Assembly: GCA_030697795.1 (NCBI GenBank)
Contig: JAUYOV010000006.1
Location: 21,722-85,721 of the forward strand
Direction: 5' to 3'
Length of the DNA: 64,000 bases
Source: a bacterium
GTDB taxonomy: Bacteria > Patescibacteriota > Minisyncoccia > JACQLN01
Positions 5,370-64,000 of the stretch are shown here, piece after piece. Positions within the stretch are counted from its first letter, which is position 1. Every line of letters starts with the position of its first letter. The translations under genes were made by a program, and so were the position numbers. Below the pieces are notes generated by a model. That model had not been told where the DNA came from. It searched no databases and was given only the letters and a program-made list of their open reading frames with translations.

Positions 5370-6791
5370 ATGACTAGCAATATATTTCACGAATACGATA
5401 TTCGAGGGCACTATCCAGCAGAAGTTAACGAAACTATTTTTTATAACTTAGGTAAAGCGTATTACGAAGCTTTTAAACCTAAAAAAATTGCTATTGGGCG
5501 CGATTCAAGATTATCGTCGGACACTTTATTTTTGTATTTAGCTTCGGCGTTACAAAATGGGAAAGTAAAAATTATAGATCTAGGCTGTGTGAGCACACCT
5601 TTTTGTTTGTGGTATTCGCAAAAATATAAAGTGGATGCCTTAATGATAACAGCTTCTCATAATCCTAAAGATGAAAACGGGCTTAAGCTTTTTTCGGCAA
5701 AAAATGGAATAGTAGATAAGCTTAATGGTTTGGGTAAATTAGAAACCAAGTTTAAAGGCATTGGTATAAGCGAAGCTAAAATAGAACACAAAATTGATTC
5801 AAAAAAACATTCGCCCATAGCCGAATATGTTGATTTTATAATTAAAAAATATACTCCTGCTTCGCCCACCCTTCGCACAAGGCTACGGAGTGGCACGGCA
5901 AGGCTTCGCAGGATAAGCAAAATCAAAATCGCGCTAGATCTTTCTAATGGTTCGGCCGGGCAGGAATTTATTTTGGCATTGGAAAAATTAAAAATAGATT
6001 TTGCCACTTTAAACGAAACCCCCAACGGAAAATTTCCCGCGCATAGTCCCAATCCACTTTTAGCCGAAAGCCAAAAAGGCATAAAAATATTGCTTAAGCA
6101 GAGTAAGTTTAGTTTTGGCGCAATTATAGATGGTGATGGCGACAGAATTTTGTTCTTAGATGAACTAGGCGAAGTAGTAGATTCAAGTTATATATTTTCT
6201 TTGTTTATAGAAAATTATCTGCCCTATAAAAAAGCTAAAGCGATTGTAAAAAATATTGCTATTGGGCGGATTGTAGACGAAATTGCCAAGAAAAAAGGCT
6301 TGCAATTAGGCGTGGTGCCGGTGGGCAGAACCAAAATGCAGACGGTTATGAAAAAAATTAAGGCGGAAATGGGTGCAGAAAAATCTGGGCATTATTTTTT
6401 TAAAGATTTATATTATGGCGATAATGCCGTCGCCGCAATACTGGCCATGGTTTTTATTTTAGCTAAAAAGAAAAAATCTTTGTCTAAACTTTTAGAGCCC
6501 TATAAAAATTATATAATTATTCCAGAAATAAACATTCCTTTTGAGGGCAGGGTGGATAAAATTTTAGGCGCCATAAAAGATAAATATAAAAACGAAAACA
6601 TAAGCGAGATTGACGGCTTAACCGTAGAGAATCCAATCCCCGCAAAATCGCAAGGCGATAGCGGGGCAAGCTGGCGGTTTAACCTGCGCCGATCTAACAC
6701 CGAAAGCGTCTGGCGATTGAATCTAGAAGGTAAAAATAGGGAAGAGGTTGATAAGTTGAAAGAGGAGGTAGAGAATATCTTAAAATCTTAA
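5370..6791 (+). CDS. alpha-D-phosphohexomutase (phosphomannomutase/phosphoglucomutase/GlmM-like)
   Basis: Active-site TASHNP, metal loop DGDGDR, C-terminal phosphate loop FNLRRSNTE. Start at MTSNIF. Contains an in-frame GC-rich insertion coding TPASPTLRTRLRSGTARLRRIS (about 5863-5930). Confidence 0.85.
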   Translation: MTSNIFHEYDIRGHYPAEVNETIFYNLGKAYYEAFKPKKIAIGRDSRLSSDTLFLYLASALQNGKVKIIDLGCVSTPFCLWYSQKYKVDALMITASHNPKDENGLKLFSAKNGIVDKLNGLGKLETKFKGIGISEAKIEHKIDSKKHSPIAEYVDFIIKKYTPASPTLRTRLRSGTARLRRISKIKIALDLSNGSAGQEFILALEKLKIDFATLNETPNGKFPAHSPNPLLAESQKGIKILLKQSKFSFGAIIDGDGDRILFLDELGEVVDSSYIFSLFIENYLPYKKAKAIVKNIAIGRIVDEIAKKKGLQLGVVPVGRTKMQTVMKKIKAEMGAEKSGHYFFKDLYYGDNAVAAILAMVFILAKKKKSLSKLLEPYKNYIIIPEINIPFEGRVDKILGAIKDKYKNENISEIDGLTVENPIPAKSQGDSGASWRFNLRRSNTESVWRLNLEGKNREEVDKLKEEVENILKS

Positions 6792-53653: not shown

Positions 53654-54571
53654 TTATTTTTTAGCTATTAAAACCGCGTGAATTTTTAACGGTTCGCAAA
53701 TGACCTTGGTATTTTTGGGTTCAAAGCCAGCCGCCAAAGCCATATCAATTAGATCTTGAGGCGTTCTATATATCATTGGCCAACCTACCACGCGCGAAAT
53801 AAATTTCTGTTCCCGATTGTGAATTATATTAGCTGTTACAAAAATCCCGCCTGTCCGTAAGTATTCGTATATAAACGACAACAAAACTATTGTCTTTGTT
53901 TGATTAAAATAATCTAGAAGCCCAACCATTTCAATAATATCAGGGTTTTCACCATTGCGGTAATGCTTATAAAAATTACCAGCAGTATCTATTATCCATG
54001 ATAAATCGTACTTTTGTAATAAATCCCCTGCTAGACTTTTGCTATAGTCGGCAGCGGCTGGATTTTTATCTAAAAACTTAACTGAAATAGGCCTAGCGGG
54101 TAAATTTAGTGCTTGTAAAACTTCTATTACCGCTCTAGCCGAACCAGAAGCTATGCTAAGAATATTTATTGGTCTATTATCGTTGATTTTATTTACAGCA
54201 TCTATGGCTAGGCTTATTTCTTTTTTTGTTAATTTTAACCTGTTTCTTACAGCTAGGGAGTTATTAAGTACGCCAAACCAAACCAGGTGCGCAATTTTTT
54301 GGAATAATCCGTTGGAGGCGTTAGTTCGCCCGTGATTGTAAAGCACTTCTAATGCTCGGTGTGTCGTAGCGTGTTCTATAACTTCTTCGGCTGATTTATG
54401 CGATTTTTTTATATAGGTCTGAAAACTTTTAGGTAGCAAATTAAGTACTGATGTTATTACAAAACTCAAAGCTTTTCTGGCAGGACCACTGATCTCATAA
54501 CCGTTACTCTTATCGTTATCTACAAAAATCTTAACTCCCCGATATTCTCCTATCTGTAAAAGATTATTCAT
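53654..54571 (-). CDS. class I SAM-dependent methyltransferase-like protein
   Basis: ILSIASGSARAVIE (Gly-rich motif I-like) and Rossmann-like alternation. Confidence 0.5.
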   Translation of the reverse strand: MNNLLQIGEYRGVKIFVDNDKSNGYEISGPARKALSFVITSVLNLLPKSFQTYIKKSHKSAEEVIEHATTHRALEVLYNHGRTNASNGLFQKIAHLVWFGVLNNSLAVRNRLKLTKKEISLAIDAVNKINDNRPINILSIASGSARAVIEVLQALNLPARPISVKFLDKNPAAADYSKSLAGDLLQKYDLSWIIDTAGNFYKHYRNGENPDIIEMVGLLDYFNQTKTIVLLSFIYEYLRTGGIFVTANIIHNREQKFISRVVGWPMIYRTPQDLIDMALAAGFEPKNTKVICEPLKIHAVLIAKK

Positions 54572-54663
54572 TTTTATTGTTTATTATAACAAAAACACCC
54601 GTCTTTTACACGGACGTTAAAGCGAGAATGGATTTTACCATTCACCTATTTTCTTTTGAGGTT

Positions 54664-55218
54664 TTAAAATTGATACACGAAAATTTTCTTAACTAAACGG
54701 TTGTTTTCTCCTAAATTTACCATCCGAACAGGTTGCCTATTTTTAAGTGGAAAACTGCAGGAAATAACCCTGGTGCCAGATGCTAATTCTTTTTCTAGTT
54801 TGGATTCTAGTTGATCAAGGATTTTCGGATACAAATACATATAAATACACGTGGCTGTTGTTAGGTTTTCTTTAAAAATATTACCTCTACGGATTTTTAT
54901 ATTCAGGTTCTTATTTATAATCAAATTTATTTTCGCTAAAGTTATGGCAATCAGCGATTTATCTAGGCCAATGTATTTGGCTTCCGGTTCATTGCGAAAG
55001 CAGGCCATAAGCACTCGGCCGTCGCCACAGCCCAAATCATAAACTACATCATTGCTTTTTATGGCCATGGTTTTAACCACAGCTTCTAAAGCCTTTCGGG
55101 GCAGAGGTACATAAGGTGCTTTTATGTCCTTTATAAAGCTATACGAATATATAATATATAAAATAAAAATTAAAGAAACCGCTACCAAAGTTAATCCCAT
55201 AAAGACGATATCAAACAT
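54664..55218 (-). CDS. membrane-anchored class I SAM-dependent methyltransferase
   Basis: N-terminal TM. VYDLGCGDGRVLMA. Confidence 0.6.
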   Translation of the reverse strand: MFDIVFMGLTLVAVSLIFILYIIYSYSFIKDIKAPYVPLPRKALEAVVKTMAIKSNDVVYDLGCGDGRVLMACFRNEPEAKYIGLDKSLIAITLAKINLIINKNLNIKIRRGNIFKENLTTATCIYMYLYPKILDQLESKLEKELASGTRVISCSFPLKNRQPVRMVNLGENNRLVKKIFVYQF

Positions 55219-55230
55219 AAGTATAGTTTC

Positions 55231-55776
55231 TTATTTTCTATAAACCCAAAAGATCTCTTTTTGGCCAATAAGGTCAAAATTAAACATCGGGAAGCCGGCG
55301 CTAGCAATTATAGCGCCGGTTTTTAATTCTTTTTTAAATTTATCGCCCAATAAGGCGTTTACATAGTTTAACTGAAACAAATAAACAAGGTCGTATTGGC
55401 TTAAATCTGTTTTCCAAAAATCCCCTCTTATAATATGCGCATTTTTTAAGCCGGCACGTTTTATTTTGTATCGACTATACCAAACAAGTAGCGGATTAAA
55501 TTCTATGCCGTAGCTTTCAAAACCCTGTTTGGCAAATTCTATAACTACTCGCCCATCGCCCGAACCTATGTCTACGATCTTTTTAGCATTTTCTTTTTTG
55601 GCAATTTCAAATAAATCTTCTAAAACATTTTTTCTATTTTTTCTATAAGACGGCATAAACGGCGCGCCCGTAAAAAGAAGGGGCAAGCCCAAAAGCAAAA
55701 AAGCTAAACCCAGCCCAGTTAAAATTATAATTTCTAGAATAACTAAAAATGTCATTGTTGTTTTTCCTTCTTGCAC
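55231..55776 (-). CDS. membrane-anchored class I SAM-dependent methyltransferase (tandem paralog)
   Basis: N-terminal TM. IVDIGSGDGRVVIEFAKQG. Confidence 0.6.
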   Translation of the reverse strand: MQEGKTTMTFLVILEIIILTGLGLAFLLLGLPLLFTGAPFMPSYRKNRKNVLEDLFEIAKKENAKKIVDIGSGDGRVVIEFAKQGFESYGIEFNPLLVWYSRYKIKRAGLKNAHIIRGDFWKTDLSQYDLVYLFQLNYVNALLGDKFKKELKTGAIIASAGFPMFNFDLIGQKEIFWVYRK

Positions 55777-56886: not shown

Positions 56887-57174
56887 TTATTTTGGAAAGT
56901 CTTTTATTATTTTTCCTATTGGTTTTTTAACTAAGCCTTTTAAAGCTCCAAAAAAGTATTTTCCACGCGCTTCCAAAGGTAAGTTTATTTTTTCTATAAC
57001 TCTTTTAGCCAGACCCCTTAAATCGCTTTCGTGGTAAAGTTTGGCGATCCCTAAATAGGCTGCGAATTTTTTAGGTTCGCGCATCAAGCGGGAAAGATCT
57101 TCGGCTAACAGATGCTCTTTTGAATGAAGCTTTTTGTTAACCTTATTGTTTCTTATTATATCGCCAATGCGCAT
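56887..57174 (-). CDS. hypothetical protein
   Basis: ORF adjacent to def. 1-nt spacing. Confidence 0.35.
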   Translation of the reverse strand: MRIGDIIRNNKVNKKLHSKEHLLAEDLSRLMREPKKFAAYLGIAKLYHESDLRGLAKRVIEKINLPLEARGKYFFGALKGLVKKPIGKIIKDFPK

Positions 57175-57240: not shown

Positions 57241-58206
57241 ATGAAGGTAGCATTTGCTGGCACCAGTGAGTTTGCCGTCCCTATATTAAAAACCATAACA
57301 TCTCAAACAAATTGGGATGTGGCTTTGGTTATTTCCGAACCCGCCAAAGCTTCCGGCAGAAAAAATCAGTTAATAGCTTCCCCTATCTCTAAACTTGCCC
57401 AAGAGTTAAATCTAAATTTGTTAACTCCAGTTTCTATTAAGGATATTAAAGAAGATATTTTGAAGTCAAATCTCGATATTTTAGTCGTGGTTTCTTATGG
57501 CCAGATTTTGCCAAAAGATATTATATGTTTACCTAAATACAAAACTGTAAATATTCATCCATCGCTTTTGCCGCGCTTGCGCGGGGCTTCGCCCATTCAA
57601 ACAGCTTTAGCCCAAGGTTTAACCGAAACTGGTGTGTCGCTAATGCTAATAGACGGAAAAGTAGATCACGGCCCAATAATTTCGCAAGAGGTTTTTTTAA
57701 TTGATCAATCCGAAAATTACTTAACCCTAGAATTTAAATTAGCCCAAATAGGCGCGTCAATGTTTGTGCGCGATTTACCTAAGTATGTTTCGGGTGAACT
57801 CCAACCACAACCTCAAGACGATTCTCAAGCAACTTTTACTAAGATGCTTAAGAAAGAAGATGGTTTGGTTGATTGGTCTAAATCAGCCGATGATATTTAC
57901 AATCAATGGCGCGCCTACCTAAACTGGCCGGGTGTTTATACTTTTTTTAAAGATAAGTCTGGCCGTACTATCCGTCTTAAGCTGATTGAAGTCGAACTTC
58001 AATCAGCAGATCAATCAATATATGCGACATCGGATGTCGCATATAGAGTGGGTAAGGTTTTTACAGATGAATCTAAAAATCTTTATATTGCTTGTCGCAA
58101 AGACGCAATAAAACTAATTAGAGTTCAGGTAGAAAACTCTAAAGTTTTAACTGCAAGCGAATTCTTAAACGGTCACGGCTATGTAGTGAGTCAAAAATTA
58201 GAATAA
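57241..58206 (+). CDS. fmt: methionyl-tRNA formyltransferase
   Basis: NIHPSLLPRLRGASPIQ. N-terminal formyltransferase domain plus C-terminal domain. Divergent from def. Confidence 0.9.
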   Translation: MKVAFAGTSEFAVPILKTITSQTNWDVALVISEPAKASGRKNQLIASPISKLAQELNLNLLTPVSIKDIKEDILKSNLDILVVVSYGQILPKDIICLPKYKTVNIHPSLLPRLRGASPIQTALAQGLTETGVSLMLIDGKVDHGPIISQEVFLIDQSENYLTLEFKLAQIGASMFVRDLPKYVSGELQPQPQDDSQATFTKMLKKEDGLVDWSKSADDIYNQWRAYLNWPGVYTFFKDKSGRTIRLKLIEVELQSADQSIYATSDVAYRVGKVFTDESKNLYIACRKDAIKLIRVQVENSKVLTASEFLNGHGYVVSQKLE

Positions 58207-58208
58207 TT

Positions 58209-58649
58209 TTATCCAAATACCCAATTTAAAAGTTTGTTTTCAATCTTGTTCATTAAGTTTGTATCAGTAATTTTGCCTATTAGTTTATTCTGGGACAGGA
58301 CATTTCCGTCAATTCTTGTGGCCTGACAAATAACAGCTCTCATTGGTACTCTATAAGTAATGTCGCTATGCAAAAAAGTATAATCACTAATTTTAATTAT
58401 TTCATTAAATCTGTCTTCAATCATCCCCGATTTAGATAATGGTATTGCAAAAGCCATACTTTTAAACCACGACACTTGATCCAGCCATAATATTGCCGGT
58501 CTTGGTTTTGCTATAATGTTTGTGACTATATTTTTATTACCACAAAACTGGCATGGGTAATCTAAAATAGAAAAGGGTCTATTGCATTTTGAGCAACTGA
58601 TTATTTCTGGAAATTTGGTAACAAAAATAATATCCCATTTATTGAACAT
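58209..58649 (-). CDS. MazF/PemK-fold toxin with inserted CxxC...CxxC zinc ribbon
   Basis: KWDIIFVTKFP / KPRPAILWL / AFAIPLSKS / ..ICQATRIDGNVLSQNKLIGKITDTNLMNKIENKLLNWV align to MazF beta-strands and the C-terminal helix. CSKC..17..CQFCG lies in the S1-S2 loop. Confidence 0.55.
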   Translation of the reverse strand: MFNKWDIIFVTKFPEIISCSKCNRPFSILDYPCQFCGNKNIVTNIIAKPRPAILWLDQVSWFKSMAFAIPLSKSGMIEDRFNEIIKISDYTFLHSDITYRVPMRAVICQATRIDGNVLSQNKLIGKITDTNLMNKIENKLLNWVFG

Positions 58650-58654
58650 AATAT

Positions 58655-59191
58655 CTAAAACGGTAGATCAGATAACACAGCTTTTTCTTCTTCTGAATTT
58701 GAATCAGTTCCTTTCGCTATGTCCAGCAGAGAATCCATTTTTGAGTTTTTTACGATTGGCAAATTATAAATAATATCCAAAAGATTCTGTAAACTCAAAT
58801 TTCCAAAAGAATCGGCCACTTCATCAATAACTAATAGTTTTTCCGGTCCAAGAGATTTAAGTAGCTTTTCCTTAATTGGAATATGCTTTTTTAAATGATA
58901 TCTTGTATATTTTTTAACGCTATTGGATAGAAGTGGAAATTCCTTCGCTTCAATGTAGTTTAAACTAATCAGCTGGTTAGTATATTTATCTAACTCTACG
59001 GAATATGGACCATGTTTATATCTCTTATATTCTATCGAAGTTATTTTAGTTTTTAATTTTTTCATGGCTAACAAATCTGCTAAAAACAAAAGTTTTTGTA
59101 GATGAGTTTTTCCTAATATTCCGTCAAGTCTAGAAATAAAATAAAAAACGACCCCAAGAGTATTTTTATCTAATGTTTGCCCAGTTTTCAT
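58655..59191 (-). CDS. Panacea (DUF4065)-domain putative antitoxin
   Basis: ..KTHLQKLLFLADLL.. is the signature helix of DUF4065/SocA-like proteins. Sits 5 nt upstream of the toxin gene. Confidence 0.6.
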   Translation of the reverse strand: MKTGQTLDKNTLGVVFYFISRLDGILGKTHLQKLLFLADLLAMKKLKTKITSIEYKRYKHGPYSVELDKYTNQLISLNYIEAKEFPLLSNSVKKYTRYHLKKHIPIKEKLLKSLGPEKLLVIDEVADSFGNLSLQNLLDIIYNLPIVKNSKMDSLLDIAKGTDSNSEEEKAVLSDLPF

Positions 59192-59263
59192 AGATTTGAA
59201 CCTTTATCTTATTTAATTATAGCTCTTATGTAACAAGAAACAAAATTGTCGTTACATGAGTTT

Positions 59264-61957
59264 TTAATTAACCCCCTTTACAATTTTAATCTCCTCTTCC
59301 GTTAAGCCGTAAAGTTTATAGACTTCCACATCAATTTTTTTATCAGTTTTTTCTATTTCGGATTTAATTTTATTGTATTCGTTGGAGTTTTTTTCAACTT
59401 CGTGTAATTCCTTGTTAAGCAAGAGAATATTGTCCACCAAAATAATGATCTGTTTTTGCTGGTCAGTTGTTGCTTTATAAATTGGGAATCGAGCAAGTTC
59501 ATTAACTTTAAATTGTGGAAAAATCTTTCTTTGAAATTTATCAAAGGTTTTGGCAAACCACTGAGAAATAAGTTTTGAATTTAAAATCGCAAGGATATAT
59601 TTAAGATTGAATTCTTTTAATGGAGAAAAAATAACCATGCTATTTATATCGTTCAAGTATTCATCATCAATGAATACTGCATTGACACAATATGGAAGTG
59701 GCGATGGTATTTGCCTCACCAAAATTCTTTGGCCACTAAAAGGTACTGATTTCCTTGGTTCTGCTAGCCAATTTCCATAACTTAAATACTCTCCTGACCA
59801 ATCCAATAAATATCGCTTTACATCAACACCCTGAAGATATGGCCTAAAAGTATCGTTTTCTTTTTTACCAGAGTGAAATCTTCTTTCTTTTTTAATTTTC
59901 TCATCCTGAATGGGATTACCCTTACCAATTTGATAAGCTTTCAAACCTGTAGAAACCTCTGCAATTTCGCCGAGAAGAACTGTATTTTTAAGTTCAAGTG
60001 AGTCTTGTTTATTTTTTGTCTGAGAAATATTTATAACAAATTCATTTTGGTAAAAATCTTCAAGTTTGTGTTTAGATAAAATTGGGTTTTCACCAACTAA
60101 AATATCACCAACTTCAATATCTGTTGAGTCTGCTTTTCTAAAAAGCAAAAGACATGTATCCACACTAGCTTTGTTAAATATACTCTCAACCGTATTTATG
60201 ATTCTTAAGTCTGCAGTATTTTTTAGCAAAAACTCTCTAAGTTTGGAAAATGAATTTATAGTTAGCCAATTATTAGGAATAATATAACCAAAATCACCAT
60301 TTTTCTTAAGCAAGTTAAAACCTAATTCAATAAACAATGAGAAAGTATTTATTTGATATTGTTGTAATTTATAATTAGCGTAATAATATTCTTTTTCATT
60401 CTCATCAAAATTTCCACCTCGCGCAAAAATATAAGGCGGATTTCCTATAATCACATCGAACCCACCTTGTTTAAATACTTCTGGAAATTTTTCTCGCCAA
60501 TTAAAAGGCTTTTTGTCTTTAAAATTACTGCCGAAATATTTTTTAAGTTCTTCGTCTGTGCCCGAAATTAAAGAATTGCCATTTTTAATATTGCTTAAAG
60601 ATGGAAGTTTTTCTTTATCTTTTAAAACGCTTATCAATAAATTTAATCTGGCTATATCTACGGCTTTTTCGTCTAAATCTACGCCATAAATATTTTGAAT
60701 CAATATTTGTAAGCGAGTGCGCGTGTTATCTGGCGCGTTAAAATCTTTGTATTTCTCGGCAATAAGTTCTACTGCCTTAACCAAAAATGAACCCGAACCG
60801 CAAGCAGGGTCTAGTACTTTAATTTTTTGTAAATCGTAAATACTTTGGCACTTTTCTAAAACAGGTCCAAGAGCGTTTTTAACTATGTAATCAACTATAA
60901 AATCAGGCGTATAATAAATGCCCTGTTCTTTGCGTTTTTTGGCATCTTTAGCAACAGAAACTCCTTTTTTAGATTCTTCCAAGCGGTAACTTAAATAGTT
61001 TTCGTATACACCACCCAAAATATCTGCTGGAATAAATTTAAAATCATACTCGTAATAACCGTGTTTGCCATATAAAATATCTATTACTTCTTCGGTAGCT
61101 TCGTCATGTTCTTCCCATTTTTCAAAAGGATGTTCAGAAAATAGGTTAGAGTTATAAAATTCATTCAACTCTCTAAACTTAGAAACCATTCCTTGGTATA
61201 GGTCTTCTCTTTTTTCGTTAGATTTCCAACCACGAACCAATTCCTTTAAAATTGGTGGCTCTAAACCCCTGTCTTCGGCAACTCTTAAAAAAACCAGCCT
61301 GTCTAAAAGTTTTTGAACACCTTCATCAATTAAGTCAGTGGATAGATTATCATTATGTATTTTAAAACTTTTCGTAAGCAAAAGCCTGCATTCTTGAATA
61401 TCTTTATATAGCTTATCCCCCACAGAAACCTTCTGGAGCCGTTTGGAATACTTATCAGCATATTTATCTAGCCCTTTATCTAAAAAAGATTGTTTTGATA
61501 ATAATTGTAATCGATCAAAATCTTCCAAATAATTTTTGTAATCAATTTGAAAAATCAATCGATCGGCCAACGCGCCTTCTATCAGTTGTGAACTGAATAC
61601 TTTTATACTTTCAAAATCTGTAAGAACAGCATAATCAACTCCTTTGTTCCAAGAATATCTCATGGCCTGCCAAGCATATTCTTCTCTGTTTAAATCTGCC
61701 CTAAGAGGTTTGGCTTCAACATAAAGAACTGGGCGACTGTTTAAATGAAAACCATAATCAACTCGCCCGCCAGATATTTGGCTTTCTTCAGCAGAAACTT
61801 CATTTCTATTGGTAATATCCCAACCTAAAGCCTCAAAGAGTGGCGCGATAAAACTATGCTTAGTGTCTTGTTCTGTATAAGCTTGAACTCTGCCAGAACT
61901 AACCGCTTCTTCGTATTTTTTAATTAACGCTTCTATTTTTATTTTTGCTTCATCCAT
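59264..61957 (-). CDS. type IIG/IIL restriction-modification enzyme (MmeI-like: PD-ExK nuclease + gamma-class N6-adenine MTase + TRD)
   Basis: N-terminal D..(V)EAK nuclease motif (VDYGF....LYVEAKPL), MTase motif I VLDPACGSGSFL, motif IV IGNPPYIF. 897 aa. Confidence 0.7.
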   Translation of the reverse strand: MDEAKIKIEALIKKYEEAVSSGRVQAYTEQDTKHSFIAPLFEALGWDITNRNEVSAEESQISGGRVDYGFHLNSRPVLYVEAKPLRADLNREEYAWQAMRYSWNKGVDYAVLTDFESIKVFSSQLIEGALADRLIFQIDYKNYLEDFDRLQLLSKQSFLDKGLDKYADKYSKRLQKVSVGDKLYKDIQECRLLLTKSFKIHNDNLSTDLIDEGVQKLLDRLVFLRVAEDRGLEPPILKELVRGWKSNEKREDLYQGMVSKFRELNEFYNSNLFSEHPFEKWEEHDEATEEVIDILYGKHGYYEYDFKFIPADILGGVYENYLSYRLEESKKGVSVAKDAKKRKEQGIYYTPDFIVDYIVKNALGPVLEKCQSIYDLQKIKVLDPACGSGSFLVKAVELIAEKYKDFNAPDNTRTRLQILIQNIYGVDLDEKAVDIARLNLLISVLKDKEKLPSLSNIKNGNSLISGTDEELKKYFGSNFKDKKPFNWREKFPEVFKQGGFDVIIGNPPYIFARGGNFDENEKEYYYANYKLQQYQINTFSLFIELGFNLLKKNGDFGYIIPNNWLTINSFSKLREFLLKNTADLRIINTVESIFNKASVDTCLLLFRKADSTDIEVGDILVGENPILSKHKLEDFYQNEFVINISQTKNKQDSLELKNTVLLGEIAEVSTGLKAYQIGKGNPIQDEKIKKERRFHSGKKENDTFRPYLQGVDVKRYLLDWSGEYLSYGNWLAEPRKSVPFSGQRILVRQIPSPLPYCVNAVFIDDEYLNDINSMVIFSPLKEFNLKYILAILNSKLISQWFAKTFDKFQRKIFPQFKVNELARFPIYKATTDQQKQIIILVDNILLLNKELHEVEKNSNEYNKIKSEIEKTDKKIDVEVYKLYGLTEEEIKIVKGVN

Positions 61958-63558: not shown

Positions 63559-64000
63559 TTAGTTAGTAAACTTGAGCGTATCGGCCACCAAATTATGGAA
63601 AGATCTTTGTTCTGTATTTAAGCCATCGGATTCCATAAAATCTGTTTGTAATTGTACTACAGATTTGTCTTTTAATACATATGTAATCAGGGTAGTTGCT
63701 TTTTCGGCTGGCAAATATTCTTCGCGCCTAATGGCAGCGTTGCCATCTAGGGTTATTTTTTCTTCTTTAATTAAATAAAAACTATCATCTTCGGCATTAG
63801 CTGTGTCTATATCTTTTAAAAGAGATTCAACATCTGTATATTTTTCGTTTGATCTGGCCATCACTTTTAATATCGTTTTTTGATCTGGGCTGGCTACATA
63901 TAAATTTTCTTCGCCCACAAAGCCTCCGCCATAAGTTACGCGCCAGCTATAGGGATATTTAATTTGGAAGAGATTATTTGTTTTTGTTTGGTATAAGTAC
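63559..64000 (-). CDS. hypothetical protein, 5'-partial (frame open to window end)
   Basis: No stop in frame through position 64000. First gene of the metal ABC operon by position. Confidence 0.35.
   Translation of the reverse strand, partial: YLYQTKTNNLFQIKYPYSWRVTYGGGFVGEENLYVASPDQKTILKVMARSNEKYTDVESLLKDIDTANAEDDSFYLIKEEKITLDGNAAIRREEYLPAEKATTLITYVLKDKSVVQLQTDFMESDGLNTEQRSFHNLVADTLKFTN

Follow-up and report, generated by a model that had tools for sequence, protein, structure and literature searches.

Panacea-domain antitoxins (PanA) are known to be paired with MazF-fold toxins (PanT) in P. moraviensis and B. ruminantium, a combination placed in HHpred cluster T5 and validated in E. coli (Kurata 2022, PNAS, PMC8832971). 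These MazF-fold toxins inhibit translation and are neutralised through a direct complex with PanA (PMC8832971), and direct neutralisation was also reported for stand-alone Panacea domains (PMC10440598). The locus described here, from a Patescibacteria contig, is probably a PanAT-type type II toxin–antitoxin (TA) operon with a divergent MazF/PemK RNase toxin that carries an inserted zinc ribbon, and it stands next to an independent type IIG restriction–modification (RM) gene. It was analysed over the span 58209–61957 of a 64-kb window, the latter being the whole stretch of DNA under study. Three open reading frames (ORFs) are present in this span, as the first-pass annotation had listed them: a panT-like toxin gene (58209–58649, 146 amino acids), panA (58655–59191, 178 amino acids) and the RM gene (59264–61957, 897 amino acids). 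The three genes, and all features mapped on them or between them, lie on the minus strand.

As in the published PanATs, a stand-alone Panacea gene lies directly upstream of a small toxin gene, and as in their MazF-like toxins, which have no CDD or Pfam match, the EndoA/PemK/MazF fold becomes visible by sensitive methods only. Unlike those toxins, the present one has a Cys4 ribbon, and its hosts are bacteria of the Candidate Phyla Radiation (CPR). The Saccharibacteria PanATs of the Kurata survey belong to a different family, since they combine HigB/RelE-like toxins with a PanA that has a helix-turn-helix (HTH). The pairing of a Panacea antitoxin with a zinc-ribbon MazF-fold toxin had been called unusual in the first-pass annotation, which was overstated as far as Panacea with a MazF fold is concerned (PMC8832971). 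Because pairs of PanA with MazF-fold toxins were already validated (Kurata 2022), what is new is limited to the inserted ribbon and a family confined to CPR bacteria.

The Panacea antitoxin and its pairing with the toxin

The Panacea domain, at first recognised from a hallmark peptide, was confirmed by profile search: PF13274 (DUF4065) matched PanA at residues 31–143 (58763–59101) with 48.7 bits (cut-off, 25.7 bits; E = 1.7e-12), and HLQKLLFLADLL lies within this match. The protein is a stand-alone Panacea protein without HTH. Its structural model is confident, and the best structural match is the C-terminal toxin-binding domain of DarG (PDB 7yk3). Unlike in DarTG, PanA has no macrodomain and its partner toxin is unrelated to DarT. 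The subfamily of PanA comprises about 90 clusters at 40–90% identity and is sharply bounded, with PF13274 carried by all of the roughly 90 close relatives.

The C-terminal tail of PanA (residues 161–178, 58658–58711) is acidic, ends in D-L-P-F and was modelled with low confidence (predicted local distance difference test, pLDDT, about 60). The acidic run and a terminal D-(L/I)-(P)-F are kept in seven of nine aligned orthologues, and the tail is a candidate neutralising segment. PanA would neutralise the toxin by direct binding, with the tail possibly occupying the RNA groove in the manner of MazE.

The next Panacea protein beyond the subfamily, at 31% identity, is paired with an unrelated 135-amino-acid protein. 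In this locus (L016, 2156–3878), the distant Panacea gene overlaps the gene of its partner by 4 nt, and the partner does not resemble the toxin family. A gene with DUF4145, the domain family of the zinc-finger HEPN RNase RAZR, lies 230 nt upstream, and the locus may be another small defence cluster.

In the window, 5 nt separate the stop of panA from the start of the toxin gene. The cognate panA was found directly upstream of the toxin gene in every locus recovered (15 loci in 10 distinct contexts, the window included), always in the same order and with a spacing of −8 to +8 nt, and PanA identity (42–67%) tracks toxin identity (49–63%) across loci. This strict pairing and the invariance of the four ribbon cysteines exceed chance, and the two genes form a conserved, mobile module.

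The toxin family is very small: 12 relatives of the toxin were retrieved from 5.8 billion clustered proteins, while HMMER over 1.84 billion representatives gave 19 toxin clusters and nothing outside the toxin family. Since no protein other than these 19 representatives is detected by HMMER, the toxin was regarded as a separate sequence family. The named hosts (Candidatus Nealsonbacteria, 'Candidatus Saccharibacteria', Roizmanbacteria and 'Patescibacteria group') are all Patescibacteria metagenome-assembled genomes, and searches of IMG/VR, INPHARED phages and PLSDB plasmids gave no copies of the toxin. The toxin of the window (MDP3764566.1) is labelled 'hypothetical protein' by NCBI. At two other loci (L014, 5572–6027; L015, about 5549–5992), the toxin gene was called too late, with products of 85 and 94 amino acids, and the intact ORFs of 149–151 amino acids begin 2–10 nt after panA; therefore, the family is under-called, besides being unannotated, in public records.

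Other than the partner gene, the neighbours of the pair differ between contexts. An N6_N4 methylase–Mrr fusion was found at L001 and L008, an HNH gene with two methylases at L003, a TnsA-like gene at L010, and an IS1595 transposase with a NERD nuclease at L013. A SpoVG/HTH_17 element is present at L007, where endonuclease VII and an N6_N4 methylase accompany it, and at L015, where a serine recombinase does. Plain housekeeping genes surround the pair at L009 and L014. On the unrelated contigs of L007 (2952–6813) and L015 (1–4929), the pair lies beside a common module of a 218–238-amino-acid protein, SpoVG, a 379-amino-acid protein and HTH_17, to which L015 adds zinc-ribbon proteins as well as a large serine recombinase. 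This module is probably a CPR integrative mobile element or prophage carrying PanAT.

In 7 of the 10 contexts, genes of mobile elements, methylases or nucleases are found close to the pair, which raises the question of whether it is a growth-arresting TA system at all. The toxin might be a nucleic-acid-binding or sensing subunit of a Panacea phage-defence or regulatory module, inert unless triggered, which would agree with the sensor role proposed for Panacea by Ernits et al. (PMC10440598), with the match of PanA to the PADLOC candidate PDC-M19A (3.3e-07), and with RAZR, in which a zinc finger fused to an RNase serves as a phage sensor (PMC13017515). However, type II TA operons have the same gene order, tight spacing and protein sizes, the putative catalytic residues of the toxin are invariant, and the pair also occurs among the housekeeping genes of L009 and L014. 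A purely sensory module is thus considered unlikely, while a type II TA pair with a presumably toxic protein, and perhaps with a role in phage defence, remains the preferred interpretation.

Predicted fold and active site of the toxin

Structural models of the toxin were built with AlphaFold2 (AF2) without templates, from a 12-sequence alignment. The modelled elements are β1 (residues 6–18), β2 (45–56), β3 (66–73) and a helix at residues 130–145, and the peptides IIFVTKFP, RPAILW, AIPLSKS and IENKLLNWV map to β1, β2, β3 and the C-terminal helix, respectively. The strand-by-strand correspondence to MazF that had been read from these peptides coincides, therefore, with the elements of the model, and all the peptide strings quoted were found in the ORFs. 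The model has the SH3-like barrel and C-terminal helix of MazF/Kid. Fold searches with it, using two methods on two libraries, gave MazF/PemK alone as top matches, and every MazF/Kid structure ranked above CcdB. The toxin is thus predicted to have a MazF-like fold.

The four cysteines, previously reported with a spacing of x17, are actually arranged as C19-x2-C22-x10-C33-x2-C36 (58542–58595). Two conserved CxxC knuckles on a β-hairpin make up a Cys4 zinc ribbon with predicted metal binding. Conservation was counted over 30 toxin-family sequences, and C19, C22, C33 and C36 are kept in all of them; the knuckles are 10–11 residues apart in 18 of the 19 members that allowed a measurement. Weak zinc-ribbon Pfam matches were observed for several family members, with L32 matches that are weak too, and weak zinc-ribbon-like similarities appeared when the intact toxin was searched against profile libraries. 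The ribbon sits between β1 and the K-x-R-P strand (45–56), which is the position of the β1–β2 loop of MazF, so the earlier placement of the ribbon in the loop covering the MazF groove agrees with both the model and the alignments. Unlike in MazEF and Kis–Kid (PemIK), this loop is replaced by a zinc ribbon of about 29 residues, and the antitoxin is a Panacea protein and not of the AbrB/MazE or Kis fold.

The insertion (residues 16–44, 58518–58604) falls in a gap opposite MazF. When these residues were deleted in silico and the shortened proteins were searched against Pfam, PemK_toxin matches were uncovered: this family ranked first in 5 of 10 members and, in a larger set, in 8 of 28. The best match (E = 0.0011, 19.6 bits) covers profile positions 2–101 of 109. 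In the same search with the same members, no CcdB match was obtained after excision. At the level of profile matches, these results show the ribbon as a true insertion masking a putative PemK domain, and they favour MazF/PemK over CcdB. Since the matches are below the Pfam cut-off and come from related sequences, they were taken as supporting evidence and not as proof.

Eight positions other than the cysteines (K48, R50, P51, F67, I69, I136, K139 and W143) are invariant in the 30 sequences. Position 72 is Ser or Thr in all of them, Q109 and R112 are kept in 29 and D114 in 27. The alignments with MazF are not significant but agree with each other, with the ribbon in a gap, R50-P51 on R29-P30, I-P-L-S72 on V-P-C-T52 and Q109 on Q77. 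In this register, which is without statistical significance, R50 and S/T72 align to R29/T52 or R25/T48 of MazF. R50 (codon at 58500–58502, motif K48-x-R50-P51) is predicted to be the catalytic arginine by analogy with the MazF literature, and its equivalents are taken to be R29 of E. coli MazF and R25 of B. subtilis MazF. S72 (codon at 58434–58436, motif F-A/G-I-P-L-S) is the predicted equivalent of MazF T52/T48 and was aligned to VPCT/AAIT. The motif Q109-A-T-R-I-D-G (58305–58325) is like Q-x-R-T-I-D of Kid and B. subtilis MazF, and was aligned to EQIRTID and DQVKSI. The toxin would then be a divergent member of the MazF/PemK superfamily, most likely a sequence-specific endoribonuclease that blocks translation, with R50 and S72 proposed in the roles of MazF R29/T52.

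A toxin with the MazF/CcdB fold might instead act like CcdB, or on another non-RNA target such as DNA gyrase. The CcdB gyrase poison family was tried as a candidate, and its Pfam family PF01845 did not match the toxin. Action of this kind is improbable in view of the fold ranking, in which CcdB is below all MazF/Kid structures, and of the excision test, in which Pfam returned PemK_toxin and never CcdB. In addition, the motif K-x-R-P at the start of β2 is a hallmark of PemK/MazF that CcdB does not have, and it is invariant here. Published MazF-like PanTs, moreover, inhibit translation (PMC8832971).

Several results weigh against a MazF/PemK toxin. No PemK/MazF match was found for the intact toxin in Pfam, NCBIfam, PADLOC or PHROGs, and PF02452 matched none of 12 intact family members. 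The PF02452 search suggested in the first pass gave no match for the intact protein, and matches in 8 of 28 excised members that all remain below the Pfam cut-off of 23.1 bits. These matches are not independent trials, since the family members are related. Sequence and profile searches of the PDB with the toxin gave zinc-ribbon-like noise or nothing relevant. Comparison of the toxin family with a MazF profile by hhalign gave E values of 0.2, 0.2 and 0.076, none significant, using a template profile of three sequences and 120 matches that stayed thin because the MazF search gave close relatives only. The family hidden Markov model scored about 2 bits against MazF sequences by hmmsearch, which is at noise level, with a consistent register. 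The relationship to MazF thus reaches significance by no sequence method. Finally, the alignment behind the AF2 models is shallow, with its 12 sequences, and pLDDT was above 70 in just two of five models and below 60 in the other three. If the fold were a modelling artefact, the 146-amino-acid protein would have another fold and function, as the shallow alignment, the low pLDDT of three models and the lack of a significant sequence match could suggest. This is nevertheless very unlikely: the model was template-free, and yet two search methods on two libraries put only MazF/PemK on top; sequence evidence independent of the model appears upon ribbon excision; and the conserved motifs fall on the predicted strands.

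The adjacent type IIG gene and the composition of the islet

The 897-amino-acid protein combines a nuclease, a gamma-class adenine methylase and a specificity domain in a single polypeptide, which defines a type IIG enzyme. Pfam matches were Eco57I (9.2e-39), N6_Mtase (1.3e-24), TaqI_C (4.5e-20) and HSDR_N (8.8e-06), and PADLOC returned REase_MTase_IIG (4.6e-104). By motif reading, the PD-(D/E)xK nuclease is D67...E81-A-K83 (61709–61759), methylase motif I is PACGSGSF (residues 384–391, 60785–60808) and NPPY is at residues 506–509 (60431–60442); the TaqI-like specificity domain, located with TaqI_C, spans 59480–59842. An N-terminal PD-(D/E)xK nuclease, a gamma-class N6-adenine methylase with NPPY and a C-terminal specificity domain in one chain are also the architecture of Eco57I/BpuSI-type and MmeI type IIG enzymes.

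The first-pass annotation had described a fused MmeI-like enzyme with PD-ExK, FxGxG and NPPY. The fusion holds, as do PD-ExK and NPPY in the order given, whereas motif I is not a literal FxGxG. 'MmeI-like' is valid for the domain order only, because Eco57I and TaqI_C match best and the other MmeI-specific domains are unmatched. The MmeI family proper was tried and rejected: MmeI_Mtase alone matched (2e-13), overlapped by the stronger Eco57I, and no N-terminal, helical, target-recognition or C-terminal MmeI family was found at E ≤ 1. The best PDB sequence matches are the BREX methyltransferases PglX/BrxX, followed by solitary adenine methylases such as M.BseCI and M.TaqI, and no solved type IIG enzyme in the PDB was matched by the sequence. 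Judged from its domains, the protein is an ordinary, independent single-chain type IIG enzyme.

The GC content of 58209–61957 is 31.6%, compared with a window mean of 39.0 ± 3.4%, and no other 3.75-kb stretch in the window is as low; the composition of the islet is anomalous. Its genes are tightly packed against fmt and the gene of an ABC-3 permease (ABC, ATP-binding cassette). The identity of fmt was confirmed by Formyl_trans_N and Formyl_trans_C. This gene is on the plus strand and ends at 58206, convergent with the toxin gene, whose stop is at 58209, so that 2 nt separate the stop codons; no terminator-like hairpin was seen between them (58204–58211). On the other side, a gap of 14 nt separates the RM gene from the ABC genes, which lie upstream with respect to transcription. 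The transporter operon consists of ABC-3 permease and ATPase genes, an assignment to class and not to metal specificity. Thus, the gene order previously given, with the three genes following fmt and preceding a zinc ABC operon, was correct as to fmt and the adjoining ABC operon, but not as to the direction of transcription, and zinc as the metal is putative. Direct repeats or att sites flanking the islet were sought with nothing convincing found. The three genes would constitute a 3.7-kb low-GC islet, horizontally acquired between fmt and an ABC-3 metal-transporter operon. The description of the locus as a defence island is plausible in view of this GC content, although the RM gene is not conserved beside the pair.

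Upstream of panA, a promoter-like region was read from the sequence (59216–59257), with a perfect TATAAT at 59216–59221 and an AAAGG Shine–Dalgarno sequence at 59201–59205, and the panAT operon would be transcribed from this promoter of its own. At other PanAT loci, −10-like boxes of their own were found as well. Immediately upstream of the TATAAT, the inverted repeat ATGTAAC-N16-GTTACAT (59228–59257) could be an operator or the terminator of the RM gene. Such repeats are expected by chance in AT-rich DNA; they differ from locus to locus, and no conserved operator was found upstream of panA across loci. A type III system (ToxN/CptN/AbiQ) was also considered and rejected, since neither a tandem-repeat array of an RNA antitoxin nor an Rfam match was found at the panAT locus.

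One integrated three-gene defence system, as suggested by the common strand, adjacency with a 72-nt gap and low GC of the RM gene and PanAT, and by DNA methylase or nuclease genes near the pair in three other contexts, is extremely unlikely and largely refuted because the RM neighbour is not conserved: a type IIG gene is beside the pair in none of the nine other contexts, RM genes of any kind are absent from L009, L011 and L014, the methylases elsewhere are of different families, and panA has its own −10 box.

Elsewhere in the window, three successive genes for S-adenosylmethionine-dependent methyltransferase-like proteins (305, 184 and 181 amino acids; 53654–55776, minus strand) were observed upstream of an acyltransferase gene and def. 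Two small ORFs flank the def–fmt region (56887–57174, 95 amino acids) and the ABC operon (63559–63918, 119 amino acids), without Pfam match at E ≤ 0.001.

A predicted zinc ribbon replacing the MazF loop

The β1–β2 loop of MazF and Kid is flexible, covers the RNA on closing and is in contact with the antitoxin, and it shapes both RNA recognition and antitoxin binding. In the toxin family studied here, a rigid Cys4 zinc ribbon, beside the predicted catalytic arginine, is proposed to replace this flexible loop. The ribbon might, tentatively, be a functional module, conferring a new RNA specificity (e.g., for structured tRNA or rRNA) or offering a surface read by the Panacea protein or by a phage trigger. 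As an analogy only, RAZR (PD-T7-4) likewise links a defence RNase with a Cys4 zinc ribbon (PMC13017515); unlike in the toxin, its RNase has the HEPN fold, its ribbon is N-terminal and not inserted, and there is no antitoxin.

An insertion of this kind in a MazF-fold toxin seems to be undescribed so far. A full-text search of a paper library for MazF with 'zinc ribbon' gave nothing relevant, 'zinc' and 'ribbon' are absent from the Kurata paper and its supplements (PMC8832971), and 'zinc ribbon' and 'Zn-ribbon' are absent from the NetFlax supplements.

What the locus adds is a toxin family that is a sequence orphan, carries the annotation hypothetical, has starts that are often miscalled and has named records from Patescibacteria only. 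It is also a methodological example of a family that profile searches miss because of a small inserted domain, and whose signal returns once this domain is cut out. With an invariant Cys4 ribbon in place of the β1–β2 loop, the family is a natural experiment on this part of MazF, and if the ribbon controls specificity or gating, it would widen the view of how MazF toxins are tuned. If the ribbon is a surface read by the Panacea protein or by a phage trigger, gating or neutralisation would be unlike that of every characterised MazF, and with either role of the ribbon the toxin family would be a CPR-specific invention. It would also provide a tractable TA or defence effector, one of few accessible to experiment, from uncultivated CPR bacteria, in which TA and defence biology has barely been explored.

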